From the IMG/VR virus record IMGVR_UViG_3300043640_000192, positions 1 through 51,327 of that record: DNA of 51,327 nt. One strand, 5' to 3'. Source of the DNA: a virus. The translations under genes were made by a program, and so were the position numbers. The notes beneath the pieces are model-generated. The model saw nothing but the letters and a program-made list of their open reading frames with translations, did not search any database and was not told where the DNA came from. This document shows positions 118-51,327 of this stretch, piece by piece. Positions within the stretch are counted from its first letter, which is position 1, and the number at the start of each line of letters is the position of its first letter.

Positions 118-995
118 AGCTGGCGGGGCTGTCACCGCTGCGGCTGTTCATGAACCTGATCAGCTCCGGGAACGACGCGCTGGAGTACGGCGCGTCGTGG
201 TACCGGGCGGGCGGCTGGCCGCCGGGGACGTTCCAGAACTCCGAGACCGAGGTTGAGCCGGAGCAGGCGAACGAGATCCGTAACCGGCTGACCCAGGCGA
301 TCCGCCGCCGCGAGCCGCTGGTGTACGGCCGGGACTGGGACTACAAGCCGGTATCGGTGCCGCCGTCGGAGGCGCAGTTCATCGAGGCGATGCAGCTGAA
401 CGCCACCCAGATCGCGGCGGTCCTGGGGCTGCCCCCGGAGCGGATCGGCGGCAAGCGCGGCGACTCGCTCACCTATTCGACGCAGGAGGACGAGTCGATC
501 TCGCTGATCACCGACACGCTGCGGCCGTGGCTGGTGCGGATCGAGACGGCCCTGTTCGACGTGCTGCCCGCGCAGCAGTACGTGCGGTTCAACGCGGACG
601 CGATGCTGAAGACGAACACCGAGACGCGGCACAAGATCTACCAGGTGGACCGGGACATCGGCCTGAAGACGGTCAATGAGATCCGGGAGCTCGAGGAGAT
701 GGAGCCGCTCGCGGGCGGCGGGGTCGGAACGGACCCGCTGCCGCTGCAGGTGCTGGTGGCGATGGCCCGCGGCATCAAGGAGATCCCGAAGTCCTTCGAG
801 CAGCTGGTGACCGAGGGGCCGGCGGACCAGCTGGCACGGGAGCAGGCGGCGGTGCTGGCGAAGGAAGCCGCCGCGCAGCCCGCCGCCCCGCCCCCGCCGG
901 TGTACCCCGCGGCCCCGGCCGCGGTGAACGGGAGCGGGGCGCCAGTGAACGGGAAGGCCCCGGCGATGAACGGGAACGGGAACGGACATGGCTGA
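3..995 (+). CDS. Portal protein, C-terminal part (HK97-family portal)
   Basis: ORF track 330 aa. The ORF is open at the window start and is followed by protease and capsid genes in the canonical order. Confidence 0.85.
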   Translation: MLDDPDQPWNPMRARIYFYGRQMSRDELFHIRAFSVPGKLAGLSPLRLFMNLISSGNDALEYGASWYRAGGWPPGTFQNSETEVEPEQANEIRNRLTQAIRRREPLVYGRDWDYKPVSVPPSEAQFIEAMQLNATQIAAVLGLPPERIGGKRGDSLTYSTQEDESISLITDTLRPWLVRIETALFDVLPAQQYVRFNADAMLKTNTETRHKIYQVDRDIGLKTVNEIRELEEMEPLAGGGVGTDPLPLQVLVAMARGIKEIPKSFEQLVTEGPADQLAREQAAVLAKEAAAQPAAPPPPVYPAAPAAVNGSGAPVNGKAPAMNGNGNGHG

Positions 996-8260: not shown

Positions 8261-9937
8261 GTGGCGATCACCCGCGTCAATAGCGCATCGATCACCGCCC
8301 GGGCCGCCGCCGCGTCGGCCACGGCCACGATCCCGGGCGGCACCGGCATCCAGGCCGGGGACCTGATCTACGTCTGCGCGGCCAGCAGCGGCACGCACGT
8401 CGCCAACACCATGTCCGTCCAGGACTCCGTCAACCTGACGCCGTTCACGAAGATCCTGGAGACCCAGCCGCCCGGTTCGGCGTTCTACCAGTCCACTCAC
8501 GTCTTCCAGACGCCTGTCAGCATCGCTGACGGCTCGACGATCACGCTGACCGGGTTCGCCGCGGCTACCGCCTGCGCGCTGGCGATCGACATTTTCCGCG
8601 GCGCGTCGGCGGTCATCGACCGGGCCGCGGTGGGTACCGGCAATGCGACGACCACCACGCCCGCGGGCCCGGCGCTGGGCGGGAACGCCACCGCGGGTGC
8701 GCTGGTCCTGACGACCTGCTCGACGGGTGCGACGGGGACCACGCAGGCGGCGGGGTCGCCGTTCACCGCGGGCAGCACGCAGGCCGTCTCCCCGGGCACC
8801 GGGATCGGCTTCGTCCTGTCGGCCAGCGGTTCCCTTACTTACGCCTCGACGTGGACGCTGGGCGTCACTTCGGTCAGCGCCACGCAGACGGTCTCCTTCC
8901 TGCCCGCCGCGGCCCCGGCTGCACAGCAGCGGAGCCGCCCGGTGATGGCCTCGCGGGCAGCGGGGATCCGGGGCTGGCTCGCCCGCCGCGCCGGGATCTT
9001 CGCCGGGACCGGCCCCGCCGTGCGGGCGCTCCACGGCCCGGTCCGCGCGCAGCCCGCCCGGACCCGCGGCGGGATCATCAGCCGCCGTGCTGGCATCTTC
9101 GCCGGGACCGGGCCGCCGTTGCGGGCACCTGATGGCCCGGTGCAGGCGCGGGCGCTCCCGCGGCGCGGCGGCAGCGTCAGCCACCGTGCCGGGACGCCCG
9201 CCACGGCGGCACCGCAGGCCGGGCCGCCGGTCTACCCGCTGCATGGCCCCGTGGCGGCCCGCAGGCTCCCGCAGCGCGGCGGGGATACCAGCAGCCGCGC
9301 CGGGACTTACGGCGGCACCGGGCCAGCGGTAAGGCCGCCAGACGGCCCGGTACGCGCGCAGCCCCCGCCGCAGCGCGGCGGGCGTACCGCCAGCCGGGCG
9401 GGGACGTTCACCGCGGTGTCCCTCACGTCAGGGCCGCCGGTCTATCCCCTGGGCCACCCGGTCCAGTCCCGCCGGCTGCCCGCCCGCGGCGGATCGGTAA
9501 GCCACCGCGCCGGGACGTTCGCGGGCTCGGGTCCTCCGGTCCCGGCGCTGAAGCAGCCGCTGGGCATCTACCGCCGCCAGCCACCCCCGCCAGCACGTGG
9601 CCGCGTCCTGTCGCTGGACGGGATACGGCAGGGCGCCGGGCCGGTGGTGCGGGCCCTGGACGGCCCGGTCCACGGCCAGCCGCAGAAGCCAGTGCTGTAC
9701 GGCCGGGCGGACAGCCGGGCGGGCATCGCGGTATTCGTGCCGCCACCAGTGCTCCAGAACGCTGCGAGCAGCCCCACGGTCACCGCCGGGGACACGTCCG
9801 CCGCCACGGCCACCGGAGCCGCCCACGGCACCACGCTGACCGCGCAGGGCACGTCAGCGGCCAGCGCCACCGGGCAGCCGGGCGCCAGCACTGTCACCCA
9901 GGCCGGAAGTTCTGGCCCCTCGGTATCAGACGGATAG
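8261..9937 (+). CDS. 558-aa protein: N-terminal beta-rich domain, central Arg-rich tandem repeats, Thr/Ser/Ala-rich C-terminus. Unknown function.
   Basis: SD 'gaggggagg' precedes the GTG start. The repeats were read directly from the translation. Confidence 0.7.
   Translation: MAITRVNSASITARAAAASATATIPGGTGIQAGDLIYVCAASSGTHVANTMSVQDSVNLTPFTKILETQPPGSAFYQSTHVFQTPVSIADGSTITLTGFAAATACALAIDIFRGASAVIDRAAVGTGNATTTTPAGPALGGNATAGALVLTTCSTGATGTTQAAGSPFTAGSTQAVSPGTGIGFVLSASGSLTYASTWTLGVTSVSATQTVSFLPAAAPAAQQRSRPVMASRAAGIRGWLARRAGIFAGTGPAVRALHGPVRAQPARTRGGIISRRAGIFAGTGPPLRAPDGPVQARALPRRGGSVSHRAGTPATAAPQAGPPVYPLHGPVAARRLPQRGGDTSSRAGTYGGTGPAVRPPDGPVRAQPPPQRGGRTASRAGTFTAVSLTSGPPVYPLGHPVQSRRLPARGGSVSHRAGTFAGSGPPVPALKQPLGIYRRQPPPPARGRVLSLDGIRQGAGPVVRALDGPVHGQPQKPVLYGRADSRAGIAVFVPPPVLQNAASSPTVTAGDTSAATATGAAHGTTLTAQGTSAASATGQPGASTVTQAGSSGPSVSDG
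8951..9751 (+). repeat. About 7.5 in-frame tandem repeats of 33-38 aa (consensus S-[RH]RAG-x-F-x-G-x-GP-x-V-x4-GPV-x5-P-x-RGG-x2-S)
   Basis: Example units: 'RRAGIFAGTGPAVRALHGPVRAQPARTRGGIIS', 'RRAGIFAGTGPPLRAPDGPVQARALPRRGGSVS', 'RAGTYGGTGPAVRPPDGPVRAQPPPQRGGRTAS'. The DNA copies are diverged. Confidence 0.85.
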
Positions 9938-11270: not shown

Positions 11271-11362
11271 TGCGGTGGCTGCGGCCTCCCGCTGAAGGGA
11301 GGTGGTGCCCGTGCGCTGGCTGCTAGTCCATCCAGGGCCGAATTTACTTCTCAGTCGCCGAC

Positions 11363-12370
11363 GTGTTCCGGGGCTGGTCCGAGGCGCTGACCGCCCTCGG
11401 CGAGCAGGTCATGGAATACAACCTCGACACCCGCCTCACCTTTTACGACGCGGCCATGATCGAGACCGGCACCTTCGACGATGACGGCCACACGCAGCTC
11501 CGCAAGGCCGTCACCCGGGAGCAGGCGGTCACGATGGCCGCCGACGGGCTCCTCGGCGCGGCCTACCGCTGGTGGCCGGACGTGATCCTCTGCACGTCGG
11601 CGTTCTTCACCCCGCCGTTCGTGCTGGAGGTCATGCGATCGCGCGGCCACAAGATCGTCATGCTGTTCACCGAGGGCCCGTACCAGACCGGCATGCAGCT
11701 GAAGATGGCGGAGTACGCGCACCTGTCCCTGGTGAACGACCCGTGCGACATAGAGAAGTACCGCGAACTCGGCCCGGCCGAGTACATGCCGCACGCCTAC
11801 CGCCCGGCCATCCACCATCCCGGCCCGGCGGTCCCGGAGCTGGCCTGTGACCTGGGATTCGTCGGTACCGGCTTCCCGTCCCGCATCGAGTTCCTCGAGG
11901 CGATGGACCTGGACGGGCTGGACGTGCTGCTGGCTGGGCACTGGCTGTCCCTGGCGGAGGACTCGCCGCTGCGCAGGCTCGTCGCCCACGACCTCGGCGA
12001 GTGCTTCGGCAACGACCAGGCCGCCGACGTGTATCGCTCGGCCCGGTGCGGCCTGAACCTGTACCGCCGCGAAGCCGAGGACGAGCACGCGGGCGAGGGC
12101 TGGGCGATGGGACCCCGCGAGGTGGAACTCGCCGCGTGCGGCACTTACTTCCTGCGGGACCCGCGGCCGGAATCGGATGAGCTGTTCCCGATGCTGCCCA
12201 GCTTCACCAGCCCGCAGGAGGCGTCGGAGCTGCTGCGCTGGGCGCTCGCCCACCCGCAGGAACGCGCCGAGGCTGCGCTGAAGGCCAGGTCCGCGATAGC
12301 CGGCCGCACGTTCGAAGCCAACGCCAGGTCATTGCTCCGGTTGCTCGACCGGCAGCCAGTCAGCAGGTAG
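11363..12370 (+). CDS. CgeB-like / Glyco_trans_1_2-type glycosyltransferase (body of the gene; the likely true start, GTG 11311, is in another frame)
   Basis: 'FVGTGFPSRIEFL', 'YRSARCGLNLYR', 'GPREVELAACGTYFL' resemble the CgeB/DUF3880 GT family. There is no SD before GTG 11363, whereas a strong SD precedes GTG 11311. Confidence 0.7.
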   Translation: MFRGWSEALTALGEQVMEYNLDTRLTFYDAAMIETGTFDDDGHTQLRKAVTREQAVTMAADGLLGAAYRWWPDVILCTSAFFTPPFVLEVMRSRGHKIVMLFTEGPYQTGMQLKMAEYAHLSLVNDPCDIEKYRELGPAEYMPHAYRPAIHHPGPAVPELACDLGFVGTGFPSRIEFLEAMDLDGLDVLLAGHWLSLAEDSPLRRLVAHDLGECFGNDQAADVYRSARCGLNLYRREAEDEHAGEGWAMGPREVELAACGTYFLRDPRPESDELFPMLPSFTSPQEASELLRWALAHPQERAEAALKARSAIAGRTFEANARSLLRLLDRQPVSR

Positions 12371-12388: not shown

Positions 12389-12811
12389 GTGGCAAGAATT
12401 CACGGCCGCAACGGCCAGGTGTACATGGGGATCGCCGCCGGGGCACTGGCGTCGCCGCTGCCGTTCCAGGCGTCCTGGACGATGAACATGGTCGTCAACA
12501 AGTCCGACGTCACTGCGTTCGGCGACGGCAACACCGTGTACGTTGCGGGCCTCCCCGACGCGAGCGGCGATTTTGGGGGCTTCATGGACGACGCGACCAG
12601 CCAGACCTACATCGCCGCCGTGGACGGATTGGCGCGCAACTTCTACCTCTATCCGAACATTACAGCAGATCCCTTGGTCTACTGGTTCGGAACTGTGCTC
12701 CCGGACTTTTCCGCTGACGGTGCTATTGGCGGTCCCGTTAACTTCAAATCAACTTGGAACGCTGCCTCGAAAGTGCAAAGGTATACGCAATGGGGCGGTT
12801 TGAATACCTGA
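12389..12811 (+). CDS. Major tail (tube) protein, putative
   Basis: 140 aa. '...WTMNMVVNKSDVTAFGDGNTVYVAGLPDASGDFGG' resembles siphovirus tube proteins. Position is upstream of the chaperone and tape measure genes. Confidence 0.5.
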   Translation: MARIHGRNGQVYMGIAAGALASPLPFQASWTMNMVVNKSDVTAFGDGNTVYVAGLPDASGDFGGFMDDATSQTYIAAVDGLARNFYLYPNITADPLVYWFGTVLPDFSADGAIGGPVNFKSTWNAASKVQRYTQWGGLNT

Positions 12812-13525
12812 CCACTTTGCCAGGTATTCAATGGCGGCTTGCAATACAGCGATGTCGTCGCGGGCATAGCCGAGCATGGGATTGCACCGGTCGCACAGCA
12901 GGCCGCGGACCTGGCCAGTCGCGTGATCATGGTCGAGACTCAGCCCGCGCTGCGTGGTGCCGCCGCAGATGGCACAGACGCCACCCTGCGCGTCCAGCAT
13001 CGCCAGGTACTCGGCGTAGCCAACACCATGCTTACGCTCCCGCTTCCGGTTCACGACCTGCATGCTTTCGCGGTGCCGTCCATCAGCGCTGTAACAATGC
13101 TGAGCGCAGTAACGGAAGCGGCCCGGTAGCTTCGGCACTGGACAGCCTGGTATGCGGCAAGGTTCCTCGGCCGCCTTGCGGAGGTGCTCCAGCTTCCGCT
13201 GATAGGCGTCGTCCCGGTGCTCCTGGCAGAGTTTGGAGCCCTGGCCTTGAACCTTCAGGTTTCCGCAGCCGGTCACCTGGCACAGCTGCGGTGCAACCTT
13301 AGCTGCGCGGCAACGGCGGCATTCGCGATAGCGGCTGCGGAATGACTTCCCGCAGGTGATGCACTGGCGTTCTGCGCGCGTGCACTGGGCGCACAGATGA
13401 TTGGTGCCACGGAAGGCGGTGCCGCAGGCGGTGCATGACCGGTCGGCCGCCCGGCATTCGTAGCACTTGCGGTAACGACCGCGGAACCCCTTCCCGCAGG
13501 CGACGCAGTCGCGCTCAGTGATCAT
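12749..13525 (-). CDS. Endonuclease VII-type (HNH-like) nuclease with three N-terminal zinc-ribbon repeats
   Basis: C-terminal 'GGVCAICGG...LSLDHDHATGQVRGLLCDRCNPMLGY' is the EndoVII signature. The N-terminus carries 3x 'C-x2-CG-x-FR-x5/6-C-x2-C'. Confidence 0.8.
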   Translation of the reverse strand: MITERDCVACGKGFRGRYRKCYECRAADRSCTACGTAFRGTNHLCAQCTRAERQCITCGKSFRSRYRECRRCRAAKVAPQLCQVTGCGNLKVQGQGSKLCQEHRDDAYQRKLEHLRKAAEEPCRIPGCPVPKLPGRFRYCAQHCYSADGRHRESMQVVNRKRERKHGVGYAEYLAMLDAQGGVCAICGGTTQRGLSLDHDHATGQVRGLLCDRCNPMLGYARDDIAVLQAAIEYLAKWSGIQTAPLRIPLHFRGSVPS

Positions 13526-13685
13526 AACTGCGCTTCTCTGTCCTCATAGCGTGCGCGGTAGGCGGCGAGCGCGGCGGCCAGGACCGCGTTGACGGCCTGC
13601 CCGGTGCGCTTGGCGTGGTCTCTGAGCCACGACTCATCCCCCTCCGATGGCCGGAAGGGAATGGGCCGTCGCTTGTGCCGGTCGG
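13521..13685 (-). CDS. Ribbon-helix-helix-like ORF with no canonical start, in frame directly after the lipoprotein TGA (possible pseudogene or recoded gene)
   Basis: Translation read by hand: 'PTRHKRRPIPFRPSEGDESWLRDHAKRTGQAVNAVLAAALAAYRARYEDREAQL*'. High GC3. The stop overlaps the EndoVII ATG. Confidence 0.35.
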
Positions 13686-14246
13686 TCATGACGCGGCCCC
13701 GGTGAAGCTGGCGGCGTTGTAGTCGAACCCGGGGGTGATGGTCACGTTCAGCTGGCTTTCCCAGCTGGCCTGCTGCGCGTCGAACTCGAACAGGTAGGTG
13801 CCGTGCTGGCCCGGGGTGATGGTGCCGGTCGGGTTGTCGATGCCGGTGTCGAACACGGCCTCGAGCTGGCTGCCATCGGGCCCGGCGTTGGCGTCAACGG
13901 TGATCTCGGAGGCGTCGAGGCTGGTTTTGCCGGCGGTGACGCGGACCTTGAGGACGATGGCCGGGTCGCCGGGGTGGCCGCCTCCCGCGTACTGGCCGAC
14001 GGCGGTGACGGTGGCGGAGACGACGGCGACCTGCAGGCCGTCGCTGTAGGTCCAGCCGTTGGCGCGGCCGAACTGCGCCGGGCCGCTGGGCGTCGCCGCG
14101 GGGGTGGTGGCTGGCGCGGCTGACGTGGCCGCGGCGGCCGGGGCGGTGGCTGCGGACGTGGGGTGGCCGGTGGTGGCGCAGCCTGCGGCGGTGAGCGCCG
14201 CTGCGGCGGTGAGCATGAGGCCGGCGGTGATCCTGGTGCGCTTCAT
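13686..14246 (-). CDS. Secreted lipoprotein (lipobox LTAAG|C), beta-sandwich-like
   Basis: 'MKRTRITAGLMLTAAAALTAAGC' is a signal peptide plus lipobox, followed by an Ala/Pro/Thr linker. The gene is on the reverse strand inside the tail operon. Confidence 0.7.
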   Translation of the reverse strand: MKRTRITAGLMLTAAAALTAAGCATTGHPTSAATAPAAAATSAAPATTPAATPSGPAQFGRANGWTYSDGLQVAVVSATVTAVGQYAGGGHPGDPAIVLKVRVTAGKTSLDASEITVDANAGPDGSQLEAVFDTGIDNPTGTITPGQHGTYLFEFDAQQASWESQLNVTITPGFDYNAASFTGAAS

Positions 14247-30498: not shown

Positions 30499-30720
30499 TT
30501 ATGTGCCTGCGCTGTCGTACCTGCCGGCCTTCACCGCGGCGAGGAACTCGGCCCACTCGGCGGCGGAGAAGTGCCACGTCTCGGGTACGCGGTGACGGCG
30601 GTCGATGAGGTCCACCGCGCCGGACGGCTCACACGCCTTCACCACGATCCGCTGGGCGGCCGAGGCGGAGCCATCCCCGACATCCGCCCCGGCCGCGTCA
30701 TTGCGGGAGGTATGGTCCAT
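30499..30720 (-). CDS. DUF397 (BldB-like) small protein
   Basis: The C-terminal 'WHFSAAEWAEFLAAVKAGRYD' matches the DUF397 signature. Confidence 0.6.
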   Translation of the reverse strand: MDHTSRNDAAGADVGDGSASAAQRIVVKACEPSGAVDLIDRRHRVPETWHFSAAEWAEFLAAVKAGRYDSAGT

Positions 30721-30808
30721 GACCCGGACTCTACGCTCCCACGGGTTACCACGGGAAGCCGTGGCGTCTCTCGCATACCCATGTACTCCCCCGATACGGT
30801 TTGATCTT

Positions 30809-31042
30809 GTGGAGATCGATCATGGCGGGGCCGAGTTCCCCTACCGGCAGCTCGCCGCGATCCTGCGGGAGCGGATCACCGCCGGCGAGTACCCGGCCGG
30901 GCGTCGGCTGCCGTCGATCATGGAGCTGCAGGGCGAGTCCGGGCTGTCGGCCAAGACGGTGCAGCGGGCCATCGCGGTGCTCGCGGCGGAGGGGCTCGTG
31001 GTGACGGTGCCGAACCGCGGCACGTTCGTCACGAACCGCTAA
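30809..31042 (+). CDS. GntR-type winged-HTH regulator (DNA-binding domain only)
   Basis: 'PYRQLAAILRERITAGEYPAGRRLPSIMELQGESGLSAKTVQRAIAVLAAEGLVVTVPNRGTFV'. The GTG start at 30809 is uncertain. Confidence 0.7.
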   Translation: MEIDHGGAEFPYRQLAAILRERITAGEYPAGRRLPSIMELQGESGLSAKTVQRAIAVLAAEGLVVTVPNRGTFVTNR

Positions 31043-43364: not shown

Positions 43365-43760
43365 ATGAGCGTGGGATACAAGCTCTACCGCCAGATCCGC
43401 GACTACGCGCCGCAGGACTGGACGAGTGGTGAGCTTGTCGTTGCCTGGGTCATCGCCGACGACGCCAACGACGACACGCGCCGCTCCTTTATCCCGAACG
43501 ACGAATTGTGCAGGCGTACGAGAATGAGCGCCAGCGGCGTCCGCAAGGCCCTCGAAAAGCTCAACGCCAAGGGCTTCGAATTCCGGGTACCGCATGGCAA
43601 GGGAAAAGACGGAAGGGAGGTTTACAGCGCACGCGGAAAGCCACCTGAATATGTCGTGCCGGACATTTTCATGCTCCTCGTCCGGGGCGCGCAGGTGGCC
43701 TACGGCCTGACGGAAGGCGGGACTGTGGTCCCGGCTCAGGTCAAGTTATCCACAGGATAA
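43365..43760 (+). CDS. Winged-helix DNA-binding protein, possible replication initiator
   Basis: SD 'ggaggag' upstream. 'ELCRRTRMSASGVRKALEKLNAKGF' is wHTH-like. The gene's 3' end carries the first iteron. Confidence 0.45.
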   Translation: MSVGYKLYRQIRDYAPQDWTSGELVVAWVIADDANDDTRRSFIPNDELCRRTRMSASGVRKALEKLNAKGFEFRVPHGKGKDGREVYSARGKPPEYVVPDIFMLLVRGAQVAYGLTEGGTVVPAQVKLSTG

Positions 43761-43805
43761 GGCGGGACTGTGGTCCGCTTAAGGCGGGACTGTGGTCCCG
43801 GCTCA
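43714..43805. repeat. Three direct repeats of 'aaggcgggactgtggtcc' (iteron-like)
   Basis: Copies at 43714-43738, 43759-43776 and 43781-43805. Copies 1 and 3 share 25 nt. Confidence 0.9.
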
Positions 43806-47288: not shown

Positions 47289-47570
47289 GTGGCCGAGCGT
47301 AAGCCTGTCGGTTCGGTCGAGAAGGCCGCCCGGTCTGAGCTGCGCAGGCTCGGCTGTTCCGTGCAGACGGAGGCCAAGGCTGCGCTGGCTGTGAGCCTGG
47401 CGCGGCAGATCGACACCAGCCGCGGTGCTGTCGCCGCCGCCGCCGCCGCCGCCCAGTTGCGGCTGATCCTTGATGACCTTGTGCGAGAGGCCCGTTCGCG
47501 GCGGCCGGAGAAGGACGTGATCGATGAGCTCAACGCTCGCCGTGCCGTCCCGAGATCTGCTGCTGGGTGA
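47289..47570 (+). CDS. terS: Terminase small subunit, putative
   Basis: 93-aa helical protein directly upstream of, and overlapping, TerL. SD 'ggatgggggg' upstream. Confidence 0.5.
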   Translation: MAERKPVGSVEKAARSELRRLGCSVQTEAKAALAVSLARQIDTSRGAVAAAAAAAQLRLILDDLVREARSRRPEKDVIDELNARRAVPRSAAG

Positions 47571-48975
47571 TCAGCGGCCCCGGCTATCGTCGGTGCCGCC
47601 GTCGGCGAAGTCGGAGGGAAGCCGGGTAGCGGACCTGGCCGCGTCGGCCGGGCTGTACCTGGATGACTGGCAGAGGTGGGTGCTTGACCAGGGTCTCGGC
47701 CGCATGGCCGATGATCAGTGGGCCGCGTTCGAGGTGGGCCTGATCGTGTCCCGGCAGAACGGGAAGGGCTCAATCCTCGAGGCCCTGGAGATGGCGGCGC
47801 TGTTCCTCGACGACTTCGGCGCACGGCTGATCCTGCACAGCGCGCATGAGTTCAAGACGGCCGCTGAGGCTTTCCTGAGGATCCGGGCACTTATCGCCGA
47901 TAATCCCCTGTTCGAGCGGCGTATCGAGCGGATCCGGACGGGCGCCGGGTCTGAGGCGATCGAGCTGAAGAACGGGAAGCGGCTGCGGTTCATCGCCCGC
48001 TCCTCCGGGTCGGGCCGGGGGTTCTCCGGCGACCTGGTGATCATGGATGAGGCGTACGAGCTCGGCGACGACGCTATGGCCGCGCTGCTGCCCACGCTGT
48101 CGGCGCGGCCGAACCCGCAGGTCTGGTATGCATCGACGGCCGGGAAGCCGACGAGTGTGCAGCTGGGCCGCGTGCGGCAGCGTGGCGTGGCCGGGAATGA
48201 CCCGTCGCTGGCGTTCTTCGAGTGGTCGGTAGACCCGGACGCCTGCGATCCGGCGGATCCGGCGGACTGGGCCCGGGCGAACCCGGGGCTCGGGATCCGG
48301 ATCACGCCGGAGTACGTGGCGCGTGAGCGTGCGGCCCTCGCCCCGGATGTGTTCGCGCGGGAGCGGCTGGGGATCGGCCTGTACCCGACGGATCTGGCGG
48401 ACGCGTGGCTGGTGATCCCGCGGGCGGCGTGGGTGGCGCTGCTGGACGCGAAGTCGGAGCCGTCGGGGAAGGTGTGCTTCGCCGTGGACGCGGAGTGGCA
48501 CGGTTCCCATGCGGCGGTCGCGATCGCGGGGCGGCGCCCTGACGGCCTGCTGCATGTCGAGGTCCCGGATGACCTGCACCGTGATGGCACGGCGTGGGTG
48601 GTGCCGCGGCTGGCGGAGATGGTGCGGAAGCACAAGCCTGCCGCCGTGGTGGTTGACGCGGGCGGCCAGGCGGGGTCGCTGATCGGCCCGCTGGAGGACG
48701 CCGGGGTCACGGTGACGCAGCCCTCGACCCGGGAGGCCGCGCAGGCGTGCGGCCAGTTCTACGAGGCGGCCGTGGATTCCGGGTCGCTGCGGCACCGCGG
48801 GGACCAGTCGCTGATGGCGGCTCTCGGCGGGGCGACGTCCCGGCCGCTGAGCGACGCGTGGGCGTGGGACCGCAGGGCCGCGGTCGTGGATATCTGCCCG
48901 CTCACCGCCGCCACGCTGGCGCTGTGGGGGCTCAGCAAGCACCCCGGCTACAACCTGCTCAACTCGGTCCGCTAG
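47524..48975 (+). CDS. terL: Terminase large subunit
   Basis: Walker A-like 'VSRQNGKGS', 'LVIMDEAYE' (Walker B), and a nuclease half. Confidence 0.85.
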   Translation: MSSTLAVPSRDLLLGDQRPRLSSVPPSAKSEGSRVADLAASAGLYLDDWQRWVLDQGLGRMADDQWAAFEVGLIVSRQNGKGSILEALEMAALFLDDFGARLILHSAHEFKTAAEAFLRIRALIADNPLFERRIERIRTGAGSEAIELKNGKRLRFIARSSGSGRGFSGDLVIMDEAYELGDDAMAALLPTLSARPNPQVWYASTAGKPTSVQLGRVRQRGVAGNDPSLAFFEWSVDPDACDPADPADWARANPGLGIRITPEYVARERAALAPDVFARERLGIGLYPTDLADAWLVIPRAAWVALLDAKSEPSGKVCFAVDAEWHGSHAAVAIAGRRPDGLLHVEVPDDLHRDGTAWVVPRLAEMVRKHKPAAVVVDAGGQAGSLIGPLEDAGVTVTQPSTREAAQACGQFYEAAVDSGSLRHRGDQSLMAALGGATSRPLSDAWAWDRRAAVVDICPLTAATLALWGLSKHPGYNLLNSVR

Positions 48976-48982
48976 GAGCGCG

Positions 48983-49267
48983 ATGACCTCGACTGCCCTG
49001 CTCGACCGCATCCCGGTTGACGAGATCAGCGAGCGTGCCCGGGCGGCGAAGCCTGGCCGCACCGCGCTGACAGTGATCGCCGGGGTGCTGTTCGGGCTGG
49101 GCTGGGTGACGGCGAAGACGCTGGGCACGCTGTGGCTGGCTGTGGCGTGGTGCGTGACGGCGGCGCGGCTGGGGTGGCGTGAGGCGCACGGTAACCAGCC
49201 GTCGCGGGCGTCGCTGCGCGAGGAGAACGACCGGCTGCGCCAGCAGCTCCAGCGGCTGGGCGCGTGA
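48983..49267 (+). CDS. Membrane protein (2 TM) with C-terminal coiled coil
   Basis: 'ALTVIAGVLFGLGWV', 'LWLAVAWCVTAA', 'LREENDRLRQQLQRL'. Confidence 0.5.
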   Translation: MTSTALLDRIPVDEISERARAAKPGRTALTVIAGVLFGLGWVTAKTLGTLWLAVAWCVTAARLGWREAHGNQPSRASLREENDRLRQQLQRLGA

Positions 49268-49395
49268 TGAGGCTGTGGCGTTTCCTGCGGCGCGTCCGGA
49301 AGCCCATCGTGCTGGACGGCAGCTTCCCCGACAGCGATTTCGAGCGGTGGATGGTTGCGTGGCTGACCAGGGCGGTGCATGGGCGGGAAAGTTAG
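49267..49395 (+). CDS. Small protein (42 aa)
   Basis: ATG overlaps the upstream TGA. Hand translation. Confidence 0.35.
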   Translation: MRLWRFLRRVRKPIVLDGSFPDSDFERWMVAWLTRAVHGRES

Positions 49396-49421
49396 GAATC
49401 CTCGGCTAGCTACCGGGGTTA

Positions 49422-49460
49422 GAGGGACCCTTGCGTGCTCCCAGGCCGCGAGGGTCCCTC
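49422..49460. terminator. 14-bp-stem hairpin
   Basis: 'gagggacccttgcg'-11 nt-'cgcgagggtccctc' (one G-U pair). Confidence 0.55.
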
Positions 49461-49482
49461 GCATACCTGGGAGATCTCGGAA

Positions 49483-50166
49483 ATGTTCTATGCCACATCG
49501 CTATCTGGTGAGCGCATCCCAGCTACACCGGAAATGCAGGCGGTCTGCCCGACCTGTAGCGCAGCGGTGGCGCCCAAGTGCGGGCAGATCGTAGCTTGGC
49601 ACTGGGCCCATCACGCACGCGAGGACTGCGACCCGTGGGCCGAGTCGGACACCACATGGCACCGGGACTGGCAGGCGTCCGCACCGCCTGGCCGCCGTGA
49701 AGTCGTCATGGGCCCGCACCGCGCAGATCTCGTCACCGCAACCGGCTGGGTTGTCGAGCTACAGCACAGCGGCATCTCCCCGGCGGAGATCGCCGAACGG
49801 GAAGCGTTCTACGGCGCCCGGATGATCTGGCTGTTCGACGCCTCCGAGGCCGCGACCGCAGGCCGGCTCGACATCCGGTACCCGTCAGGCGGCTACTTCG
49901 GCGACCCGGGCGAGTACGTCACATTCCGGTGGAAGCACCCGCGCAAGTCGATCGCCTGCTGCCAGCGGCGCGTGCTCCTCGACCAGGGCGATGGCTGGCT
50001 GCTGTCAATCCGCCGAATTTATCCGCATGGCCGCTGCGGTGGATGGGGCTACATGTTCCCGGCCGAAGATTTCCGCAGGTGGATAGACGGCATCCAGGAC
50101 GATGCACACCGTTCCCACGGTGTGACGGTCCACGCTGACAGCGTCCGCGATAGCACCGACGGCTAG
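49483..50166 (+). CDS. CoiA-like competence-family nuclease
   Basis: 'CPTCSAAVAPKCGQIVAWHWAH...ESDTTWH...HRADLVTATGWVVELQHSGISPAEIAEREAFYGARMIWLF' matches the CoiA family pattern. Confidence 0.6.
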   Translation: MFYATSLSGERIPATPEMQAVCPTCSAAVAPKCGQIVAWHWAHHAREDCDPWAESDTTWHRDWQASAPPGRREVVMGPHRADLVTATGWVVELQHSGISPAEIAEREAFYGARMIWLFDASEAATAGRLDIRYPSGGYFGDPGEYVTFRWKHPRKSIACCQRRVLLDQGDGWLLSIRRIYPHGRCGGWGYMFPAEDFRRWIDGIQDDAHRSHGVTVHADSVRDSTDG

Positions 50167-50703
50167 CTTCTGAGCGTGAAGCCGCTGGATGTCCAGCACC
50201 TTCTCCGGGGTCAGCCTGGTACGCCTCGTGTTCCGCGCCTGCTGGGCTGAGGTAGCCCACCGGCAGTTCCCGGGCTCGTAGTTCCCGTCGTTGTCGATCC
50301 GATCGAGCGTCATGCCGCGTGGCTTCTCGCCCATGTCTGCCAGGAACGCCGGATATTCACGCCACGCCTCGCAGACCGTGATGCCCCGGCCACCCCAGTC
50401 GGCCCAGCGGGGATGGTCCGGGTTGGTGCACCGCCCGATCATGTTCTGCCAGCTGTAGTAGGTCGGCGTCCTGCCAGACCGCGTCGCCAGCCCGTGCTTG
50501 GTGGAACGCGCGGCTGTCACCTCACGCCGCAGGCAGCCACAGCTCATGGTGGTGCCGCGCTGCAGCACCGAGCCACGGATGATCTTCCCGGTGCCGCACT
50601 CGCACCGGCAGCGCCAGCAGGCGTCACCTTTCAATGTGAAGCCGTACGACAGCACCAGCAGTCGGCCGAAACGCTGTCCGACCAGGTCTTTCCGCAGGGA
50701 CAT
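50005..50703 (-). CDS. HNH-type homing endonuclease with C-terminal HTH
   Basis: 'LVGQRFGRLLVL...CRCECG...YYSWQNMIGRCTNP...TLDRIDNDGNYEPGNCRWAT'. 162-nt convergent overlap with the CoiA-like gene. Confidence 0.7.
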   Translation of the reverse strand: MSLRKDLVGQRFGRLLVLSYGFTLKGDACWRCRCECGTGKIIRGSVLQRGTTMSCGCLRREVTAARSTKHGLATRSGRTPTYYSWQNMIGRCTNPDHPRWADWGGRGITVCEAWREYPAFLADMGEKPRGMTLDRIDNDGNYEPGNCRWATSAQQARNTRRTRLTPEKVLDIQRLHAQKLAVGAIADAVSVDRHTVGTVCIVLDAVYPPAEIFGREHVAPSTAAAMRINSAD

Positions 50704-50825
50704 ACCCGAATTATAGGGGTTGCTCGCTGGCTGCCACTGACCAAACGCCAATGACGCTCGGAAGGGGGTGGCCATGAGCCTGGTAGACCGCATCAACGCC
50801 GAATTCACTGAGGCACGCACCATCG

Positions 50826-51327
50826 GTGGGGTCCCCTGGCGATTACCGCCCCTGGGACAGTCCCTACGTCAGGTTCGACGCTGGCGGCCCGGCCCACCCA
50901 TCGGAGGCCACGGGCGGCGTTGAGGCGTCGCTGCGCCTCTCGCCGCTGTACTCAGGCACGCGGCTGCTCGCCGACGCGGTCGCCTCCCTGCCGCTGCAGC
51001 AGTACCGCAAGCTGCCGGGCGGCAAGCCGCAGCGGCTGGACACGCCCTCGCCGCTGCTGGCCAGGCCGTCGGCGACCGGCACCGTGTACGACTGGCTGTT
51101 CCAGGCGATGACGTCGCTGGTGCTGCAGGGCAACGCGTGGGGCTACATCACCGGCCGCGACGGCTACGGCTACCCGACCGGAATCGAGTGGCTCCCGGCC
51201 GAGCGGGTCCAGGTGCTGGATGACCCGGACCAGCCGTGGAACCCGATGCGGGCCCGGATCTACTTCTACGGCCGGCAGATGTCCCGCGACGAGCTGTTCC
51301 ACATCCGGGCGTTCAGCGTGCCGGGGA
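50826..51327 (+). CDS. Portal protein, N-terminal part (continues at 118-995 after circular closure). Conservative GTG start; see the finding on the ATG at 50774.
   Basis: Frame is continuous with ORF 3..995 through the terminal overlap. Peptide '...EASLRLSPLYSGTRLLADAVASLPLQQYRK' is typical of HK97-family portals. The frame opens after TAG at 50784, and the first in-frame start is GTG 50826, which has no SD. Confidence 0.75.
   Translation, partial: MGSPGDYRPWDSPYVRFDAGGPAHPSEATGGVEASLRLSPLYSGTRLLADAVASLPLQQYRKLPGGKPQRLDTPSPLLARPSATGTVYDWLFQAMTSLVLQGNAWGYITGRDGYGYPTGIEWLPAERVQVLDDPDQPWNPMRARIYFYGRQMSRDELFHIRAFSVPG
51211..51327. repeat. Terminal overlap copy 2 (identical to 1-117)
   Basis: Same 117-nt string as the window start. 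Confidence 0.95.

Follow-up and report, generated by a model that had tools for sequence, protein, structure and literature searches.

To our knowledge, natural and required translational bypassing is among the rarest decoding events. Known cases comprise gene 60 of phage T4 and its relatives, the yeast mitochondrial byps, and a UUA case, so far only partly proven, in the terminase genes of three actinophages or prophages. Here we analyse the complete virus record IMGVR_UViG_3300043640_000192 (51,327 bp, in full length referred to as the window), in which the 5' part of the portal gene contains a short coding gap that opens with the codon TTA. Sequence comparison indicates that the portal protein is probably expressed via a 7-nucleotide (nt) UUA-triggered translational bypass.

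The terminase bypass of phage phiHau3 is said to have been proposed by Smith et al. in 2013 (J Bacteriol 195:4924) and then followed up by Antonov et al. UUA-mediated bypass is described for the terminases of the Streptomyces phage phiHau3 and of the StrepC.1 and S. catenulae prophages; the large terminase (ter) gene of phiHau3 carries UUA-led 10-nt inserts and two prophage ter genes carry 7-nt inserts, in all 3 of 100 ter genes (Antonov et al. 2023, PMC10732093). A bypass junction peptide was identified by mass spectrometry in E. coli with UUA changed to UAA, and full-length product was found in S. coelicolor (PMC10732093). In the published model, scarcity of the bldA tRNA in vegetative growth permits bypass, and hence lytic development (PMC10732093). 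Written as take-off codon / gap / resume codon, with the last triplet of the gap as the landing codon, the phiHau3 ter gaps read directly from the sequence are GGC/TTACTCC GGT/AAG and TCT/TTAACGG TCC/ACG.

The portal gap of the window shares this architecture, and the site is therefore assigned to UUA-mediated short bypass. In both systems a short frame-disrupting insert opens with UUA right behind the last conserved codon and ends in a codon synonymous with the take-off codon (GGC to GGT and TCT to TCC in phiHau3), and uninterrupted homologs have the two flanks joined directly. The length of 7 nt matches the two prophage ter gaps, and in both cases a late essential virion-assembly gene is affected in a high-GC actinophage that avoids TTA elsewhere. 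Unlike in phiHau3, the genes concerned here are those for the portal and a glycosyltransferase, while the terminase of the window is an uninterrupted open reading frame (ORF) of 484 amino acids (aa; 47521-48975). The portal site lies only 23 codons from the start. It lies next to an HNH endonuclease gene, an arrangement of which no mention was found in the phiHau3 bypass literature, and the phage of the window is uncultured. A literature search found no published UUA bypass in a portal or glycosyltransferase gene, and PMC10732093 describes neither.

The interrupted portal gene

The first 117 bases of the record are repeated at its end, and because of this terminal repeat the portal gene, which crosses the record end, continues at 118-995 (plus strand, stop codon 993-995). 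Its body encodes an HK97-family portal (PF04860 Phage_portal, E 2e-58, 198.6 bits against a gathering cut-off of 39.1). Translation starts at ATG 50774, preceded by a strong Shine-Dalgarno (SD) sequence, GGAAGGGGG, read at 50760-50768 on the plus strand; equivalent G-rich SD sequences lie upstream of the corresponding start in relatives L003, L006 and L010. From this ATG, frame A reads MSLVDRINAEFTEARTIGGVPWRLPPLGQ... and ends at TGA 50921-50923. The resulting 49-aa ORF (50774-50923, plus strand) would be the termination product if TTA were decoded as Leu; its stop position differs among relatives, so the tail of the ORF is not conserved. The first 23 codons of frame A (50774-50842, plus strand, MSLVDRINAEFTEARTIGGVPWR) match the N-termini of uninterrupted homologs. 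The portal body lies in the +1 frame, frame B, which is open from 50787 and has GTG 50826 as its sole canonical start; this GTG lacks an SD sequence, as do the frame-B starts of the relatives. An earlier note on this DNA had placed the start, the frame-A stop, the frame-B body and its lone GTG in this way, and had assigned the N-terminal piece to the portal; all of this was confirmed, as aligned homologs carry that piece fused in frame.

A protein search with the portal returned 624 homologs. Most start M-G-L-x-x-R-V...R-x-I-G-G-V-P-W-R-P-W-D-S-P-Y/F, with MGLxxRVxAxRxExRxIGGVPWR as the fuller N-terminal pattern, and uninterrupted homologs read ...IGGVPWRPWDSPYV... at the junction (GGVPWRPWDSPYV). 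Since these N-termini are contiguous, the true N-terminus is encoded by frame A as far as ...GGVPWR, and the protein from PWDSPYV... onward by frame B. In the closest uninterrupted relatives, L004 and L005, the DNA is CCC TGG CGC CCC TGG GAC; removal of 7 nt from the corresponding stretch of the window, CCC TGG CGA TTA CCG CCC CTG GGA C (to be divided as CGA/TTAC CGC/CCC), yields this sequence. On the plus strand, the take-off codon CGA (Arg, 50840-50842) would be in the P site when the rare, 'hungry' TTA (50843-50845) occupies the A site. The gap TTACCGC, defined by comparison with L004 and L005, spans 50843-50849 and ends in the landing codon CGC (50847-50849), and the body resumes at CCC (PWDSPYVRFDAGGP..., 50850-51327). 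The discontinuity reported in the earlier note is real; its size is 7 nt relative to the uninterrupted homologs, not the 1 nt given there.

At least 14 distinct relatives, assembled independently of one another and with 55-83% protein identity, carry the identical core TGGCGATTA(C/A)CG, and across 14 distinct sequences TGG CGA TTA (C/A) CG is invariant while flanking wobble positions drift. The TTA is conserved throughout and leads every insert, in line with the earlier proposals that a recoding event is needed and that this rare codon is its key. Five of the 14 relatives were retrieved by protein search and the others by pattern or by an unbiased locus search; the 50 metagenome pattern matches were mostly unrelated genes, and the portal-like ones alone were used. 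The break was found by protein similarity alone in L003 (82% identity) and in L006, L010 and L011 (55-60%).

In the 14 relatives, variability at codon positions 1, 2 and 3 was 0.11, 0.11 and 0.43 in frame A upstream of the gap, and 0.18, 0.24 and 0.41 in frame B downstream of it. The concentration at third positions on both sides indicates that both pieces are under purifying, protein-coding selection, with the frame switch located between TGG and CGN. Given this selection in both frames and the conserved insert, the gap is neither an assembly error nor a recent inactivating mutation. A sequencing or assembly indel, or an inactivating mutation in a decaying prophage, might be suspected from the fact that the record is a single metagenomic assembly. 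We regard this as extremely unlikely: the identical insert recurs across different samples and assemblers, the flanks remain under selection, the record is a complete genome with terminal repeats, and relatives likewise retain the second gap of the window, which is of the same type. The simple 1-nt error that the earlier note had allowed for falls with it.

The codons at the two edges of the gap are also constrained. Thirteen of the 14 relatives have CGC, CGT or CGA for landing, the remaining one CGG. All 12 distinct gap genes use CGA as the take-off Arg codon, as against 1 of 27 Arg codons at the same position in 30 distinct uninterrupted genes. CGATTACCG does not occur elsewhere in the window and is not a dispersed motif. 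A DNA search of cultured phages gave no match to the site sequence; the nearest cultured portal relatives in the protein search are Mycobacterium phages with at most 35% identity, and a genome scan for portal relatives yielded only a Terrabacter prophage with 41% identity.

Related gaps in portal and glycosyltransferase genes

An unbiased sample of 50 distinct portal 5' ends contained 34 uninterrupted genes, 11 with frame-shifting inserts and 5 with in-frame inserts. About one third (16 of 50) carry TTA-led inserts of 2-12 nt at ~10 positions, a far larger gap family than in ter (3 of 100 genes). Every insert starts with TTA directly after the last conserved codon. At the sampled loci, an in-frame TTA within the first 55 portal codons always opens an insertion and is never an ordinary Leu codon. 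In most of ~12 independent gap types the insert closes with a triplet for the same amino acid as the codon preceding TTA, a match with a chance of a few per cent per case. Take-off codons, unlike those of phiHau3 ter, are nearly always A- or U-ending, despite a G+C content at third codon positions (GC3) of ~90%.

After CGA, landing is on CGC, CGT or CGA over gaps of 6, 7, 10 and 12 nt: besides the window's own CGA/TTAC CGC/CCC (7 nt), the types are CGA/TTAA CGC (7 nt), CGA/TTAATTT CGA (10 nt), and the in-frame CGA/TTA CGC (6 nt) and CGA/TTAACCAAC CGC (12 nt). Other take-off codons are found in GTT/TTAGA GTT (8 nt), GTT/TTA GTC (6 nt, in frame), CCT/TTACG CCT (8 nt), TCT/TTAGGTAA TCC (11 nt), AAT/TT AAT (5 nt), TAT/T TAC (4 nt) and TTT/TT (+2, on a T5 run with landing on TTT). 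The landing match is weaker in TGG/TT AGG (5 nt), TGG/TTACC TGC (8 nt) and GAT/TTAG GGC (7 nt). The second gap of L012, CGA TTA ATT TAA CGT TTC (9301-9400 region), contains an in-frame stop; the conserved PYVRFDVGGP is regained only if the ribosome hops from CGA to CGT. L013, L111, L123 and L131 have two gaps per gene; the lengths of the two add up to a number divisible by three, and the sequence that separates them is garbled or contains a stop. Two TTA-led gaps lie within the first 120 nt of the portal gene in several relatives (L012, 9301-9400; L013, reverse strand; L111, L123 and L131, 1500-1650). Gene callers report such genes either as one ORF with a garbled 10-residue stretch (P0100) or as N-terminally truncated portals (P0059, P0062, P0090).

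Two relatives, L110 and L123, have CGA TTA A CGN, so that frame B reads GGC-GAT-TAA and stops before the body resumes. With a +1-frame TAA lying within the gap, neither a +1 slip at CGA nor one further upstream is possible. This bears on the prfB-like mechanism of the earlier note, in which peptidyl-tRNA-Pro slips by +1 on CCC-U, stimulated by the upstream GGUGGGG, to give GGVP-GDYRPWD. The window does contain CCC-U, a G-rich run 2 nt upstream and a frame B that is open across the site. The Pro codon, which is CCC in the window, is CCG in L010 and L012 and CCA in L043, the frame-B TAA of L110 and L123 falls between the slip site and the body, and it is CGATTA, not CCCT, that is invariant. The conserved W-R would be missing from the product, and in a +1 shift of the prfB or Ty type CGA is unable to re-pair on GAU. 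The probability left to such a slip is close to negligible.

The second gap of the window lies in a CgeB-like glycosyltransferase gene on the plus strand. Homologs begin MRWLLVHPGPNFSVADVF; the N-terminal segment VRWLLVHPGPN (11311-11343, SD sequence at 11294-11302) ends in the take-off codon AAT (11341-11343), and the body FSVADVFRGW... (PF13524) occupies 11348-12370. Between them lies TTAC (TTA plus C, 11344-11347), with TAC (11345-11347) as the landing triplet, so that the junction reads ...CCG AAT TTA C TTC TCA.... The sequence AAT-TTA-C-TTC is common to the window, L169 and L171, while L170 has CCG/TTAG CCG/AAC and L151 the in-frame GGT/TTA GGC/CCC. The same bypass event may take place at AAT/TTAC/TTC. 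The earlier note had seen the portal architecture at two further sites, 11311-11363 and 13521-13689. The first stands, as a 4-nt insert. The second is an ordinary 55-aa ribbon-helix-helix (RHH)-like ORF, ATG-started at 13689 on the minus strand and ending CAG-TTA-TGA. A GC3-based scan, with output consisting mainly of antisense artefacts, detected no third TTA-linked frame break in the window.

The proposed bypass and its alternatives

A uniform explanation of all these gaps would be that a peptidyl-tRNA stalled at UUA re-pairs at the next cognate codon, i.e. translational bypassing. In the window, portal mRNA would be translated from ATG 50774 until codon 23, CGA, is in the P site and UUA enters the A site. 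The ribosome would stall there, the UUA-decoding tRNA-Leu being scarce or absent in a high-GC actinobacterial host. Peptidyl-tRNA-Arg would leave CGA, the mRNA would slide by 7 nt, and the tRNA would re-pair at the synonymous CGC, with decoding restarting at CCC 50850. The predicted product has 474 aa and the junction ...TIGGVPWR/PWDSPYVR..., identical to that of uninterrupted homologs, and the model predicts the tryptic peptide TIGGVPWRPWDSPYVR. The VPWR/PWD junction favoured by the comparative data was absent from the junctions predicted in the earlier note. If UUA were decoded instead, the outcome would be the 49-aa frame-A peptide and no portal.

Several points weigh against this bypass. 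The scarcity of tRNA-Leu(UAA) in the host is assumed from 70% G+C and the Streptomyces precedent. Landing matches are 2 of 3 bases only at TGG to AGG, TGG to TGC, CGA to CGG, GAT to GGC and the window's own AAT to TAC in the glycosyltransferase gene. The minimum free energy of RNA structure in 50800-50890 is no better than that of shuffles (z -0.53), and a 7-nt hop without a known stimulator might be inefficient. The 7-nt gap alone also fits decoding of UUA as Leu with one base skipped, giving VPWRLRPWD, which is exactly what the in-frame relatives L080 and L097 encode.

This last reading is one form of a one-base +1 event at UUA. Either Leu would be decoded and a base skipped in quadruplet-like fashion (UUAC or UUAA, VPWR-LR-PWD), or, with UUA hungry, tRNA-Tyr would read the +1 UAC as in Ty3 (VPWR-YR-PWD, the second junction proposed in the earlier note). 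The net frame change is indeed +1, the in-frame CGA TTA CGC of L080 and L097 indicates that a two-residue insert is tolerated there, and the glycosyltransferase gap of the window is likewise N-TTA-C. Such an event is nevertheless unlikely. L110 and L123 have UAA as the +1 codon, which rules out the UAC reading there, and either form leaves unexplained the gaps of 2, 5, 8, 10 and 11 nt, the 12-nt gap with an in-frame TAA, the match of landing and take-off codons and the constant CGA at take-off.

Two candidate stimulators of bypassing were rejected. A small GGCG-AUUAC-CGCC hairpin with UUA in its loop follows from the W-R and R-P codons and is absent in several relatives; the upstream SD-like GGNGG encodes the conserved Gly-Gly and occurs in uninterrupted genes as well. 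ARAGORN found no tRNA genes in the phage, and therefore no phage-borne suppressor or quadruplet-reading tRNA.

The portal could also be made without any recoding, from GTG 50826 or another frame-B start and without its first 23 residues, the frame-A ORF then being a leader peptide and perhaps a UUA-sensing regulatory upstream ORF (uORF). In every relative with a TTAC 7-nt gap, frame B offers a GTG or TTG within a few codons upstream, which gene callers use (P0003, P0051, P0058), and uORFs containing UUA are described for adpA (PMC10732093). This is very unlikely, as the frame-B starts vary in position, derive from the Gly-Gly-Val codons and lack SD sequences, and the frame-A peptide is the conserved portal N-terminus. 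Moreover, the TAA just before the landing codon in L110 and L123 would leave the conserved RPWDSPF codons untranslated despite the frame-B constraint, and with an internal start the two-gap genes would lose even more conserved sequence.

The 50-nt bypass of T4 gene 60, with its MobA homing endonuclease cassette, was reportedly described by Huang (1988) and Bonocora (2011), and the byp elements of Magnusiomyces capitatus mitochondria reportedly by Lang et al. (2014). As in gene 60, the proposed bypass would move a peptidyl-tRNA from a take-off codon to a matched landing codon (here CGA and CGC) in an essential phage gene, and an HNH-type endonuclease gene adjoins the gap. Here, in contrast, the gap is 7 nt, not 50, and the A-site trigger is the rare sense codon UUA, not a stop. 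No significant T4-type take-off hairpin, nascent-peptide signal or in-gap SD sequence was identified at the window site. Lacking a 50-nt gap, a stop codon after take-off and a significant hairpin, the portal site resembles gene 60 in the re-pairing step yet is not a member of that family. With the byp elements, the gaps share their large number, the presence of several per gene, the matching take-off and landing codons and a variable occurrence among relatives; byps, however, are structured mobile elements of 27-55 nt in mitochondria, whereas the gaps here are 2-12 nt long with a leading UUA.

Hops at hungry or stop codons are known from E. coli (Weiss et al. 1987; Gallant and Lindsley 1998, as cited in PMC10732093). 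In these, too, a slowly decoded A-site codon lets peptidyl-tRNA hop a short distance (+2 to +6 and beyond) and land on a cognate codon close by. Those hops are low-level and occur on artificial or incidental sequences, whereas the window site is conserved in an essential gene, so that a hop there must supply all functional portal.

Endonuclease genes, TTA usage and implications

A gene for an HNH endonuclease with a C-terminal helix-turn-helix (HTH) domain (50005-50703, minus strand; PHROG 374 'HNH endonuclease', E 6e-64) is divergent from the portal start. Its ORF starts 70 nt from the portal ATG and ~140 nt from the gap. The gap-bearing loci L011, L022, L030, L093/L013, L111/112, L128 and L141 have homologs in this same divergent placement. 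In all, an HNH gene adjoins the gap in the window and at 8 other gap loci; many gap loci are without one, and L121 has an HNH gene remnant only and no gap. Among loci of the unbiased sample with enough upstream DNA, 4 had both HNH gene and gap, none an HNH gene without gap, 10 a gap without HNH gene and 30 neither (Fisher one-sided p 0.007, uncorrected for relatedness).

The HNH gene and a CoiA_N-like ORF (49435-50166) occupy ~1.5 kb (49268-50773) between a conserved 94-aa gene (48983-49267) and the portal start. In the uninterrupted L004 and L005 the flanking genes are almost adjacent, and the stretch looks like an inserted mobile module. An HNH_3 gene lies directly upstream of gapped glycosyltransferase genes in L169 (1-372) and L170 (1-330), and cluster P0179 fuses both domains.

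The bypass insert of T4 shields the DNA against MobA, the nuclease encoded next to it (Manning and Atkins 2022, preprint 10.1101/2022.08.31.505936); the endonuclease of the window differs from MobA in family and in being divergently placed upstream of the gene. By analogy, we tentatively raise the possibility that the UUA gaps are endonuclease-resistance mutations in high-GC actinophages, the HNH gene encoding a free-standing homing endonuclease that targets the GGVPWRPWDSP(Y/F)W coding stretch of rivals and forming, with the gap, a mobile cassette. Tiny inserts anywhere in a conserved stretch of ~45 nt would then protect the allele. Only inserts made up of UUA and, at their end, a codon matching the preceding one would survive, because UUA-starved ribosomes could hop over them. 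Were this so, the gaps would incidentally tie late-gene expression to the bldA-type tRNA state of the host, which would fit the other TTA codons of the phage, all in regulator genes and including the last codon of a CI-like repressor. If the endonuclease link holds, it would explain the origin of the gaps, and the T4 arrangement of nuclease plus bypass would have evolved independently in actinophages.

The phage has a G+C content of 70%, and TTA is almost absent from its coding frames. Outside the two gaps, four genes for DNA-binding regulators were the sole ones found with an in-frame TTA: at 30746, codon 10 of a GntR/Kor-like gene (30719-31042); at 43746 in a winged HTH (wHTH) gene (43365-43760); and, on the minus strand, at 13527-13525 as the last codon of the RHH ORF (13689-13522) and at 33384-33382 as the last codon of the CI-like HTH_3 repressor (33753-33379), which has no close relatives. 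Two of the four are the very last sense codon, and the set recalls the bldA regulon of Streptomyces. Output of the repressor could depend on the same tRNA as the bypass. An endonuclease VII gene (12749-13525, minus strand; PF02945, E 4e-23) is translationally coupled (ATGA) to the RHH ORF that ends in TTA, and a ribosome stalled on this UUA would cover the start codon of the endonuclease VII gene. Three AAGGCGGGACTGTGGTCC-type repeats surround the 3' end of the wHTH gene (43714-43800), where TTA 43746 lies inside a DnaA-box-like TTATCCACA.

If the gaps are bypassed as proposed, the window and its relatives would add two gene families, portal and glycosyltransferase, to UUA bypass, with at least 12 distinct gap types, some doubled within a gene, some in frame and one with a stop codon. 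The sequence rules derived from them are a UUA in the A site, an A- or U-ending take-off codon and, 2-12 nt further downstream, a landing codon cognate to it. In many metagenomic phages such essential genes are truncated or split by gene callers, and 'frameshifted' portals of this kind should not be counted as defective.

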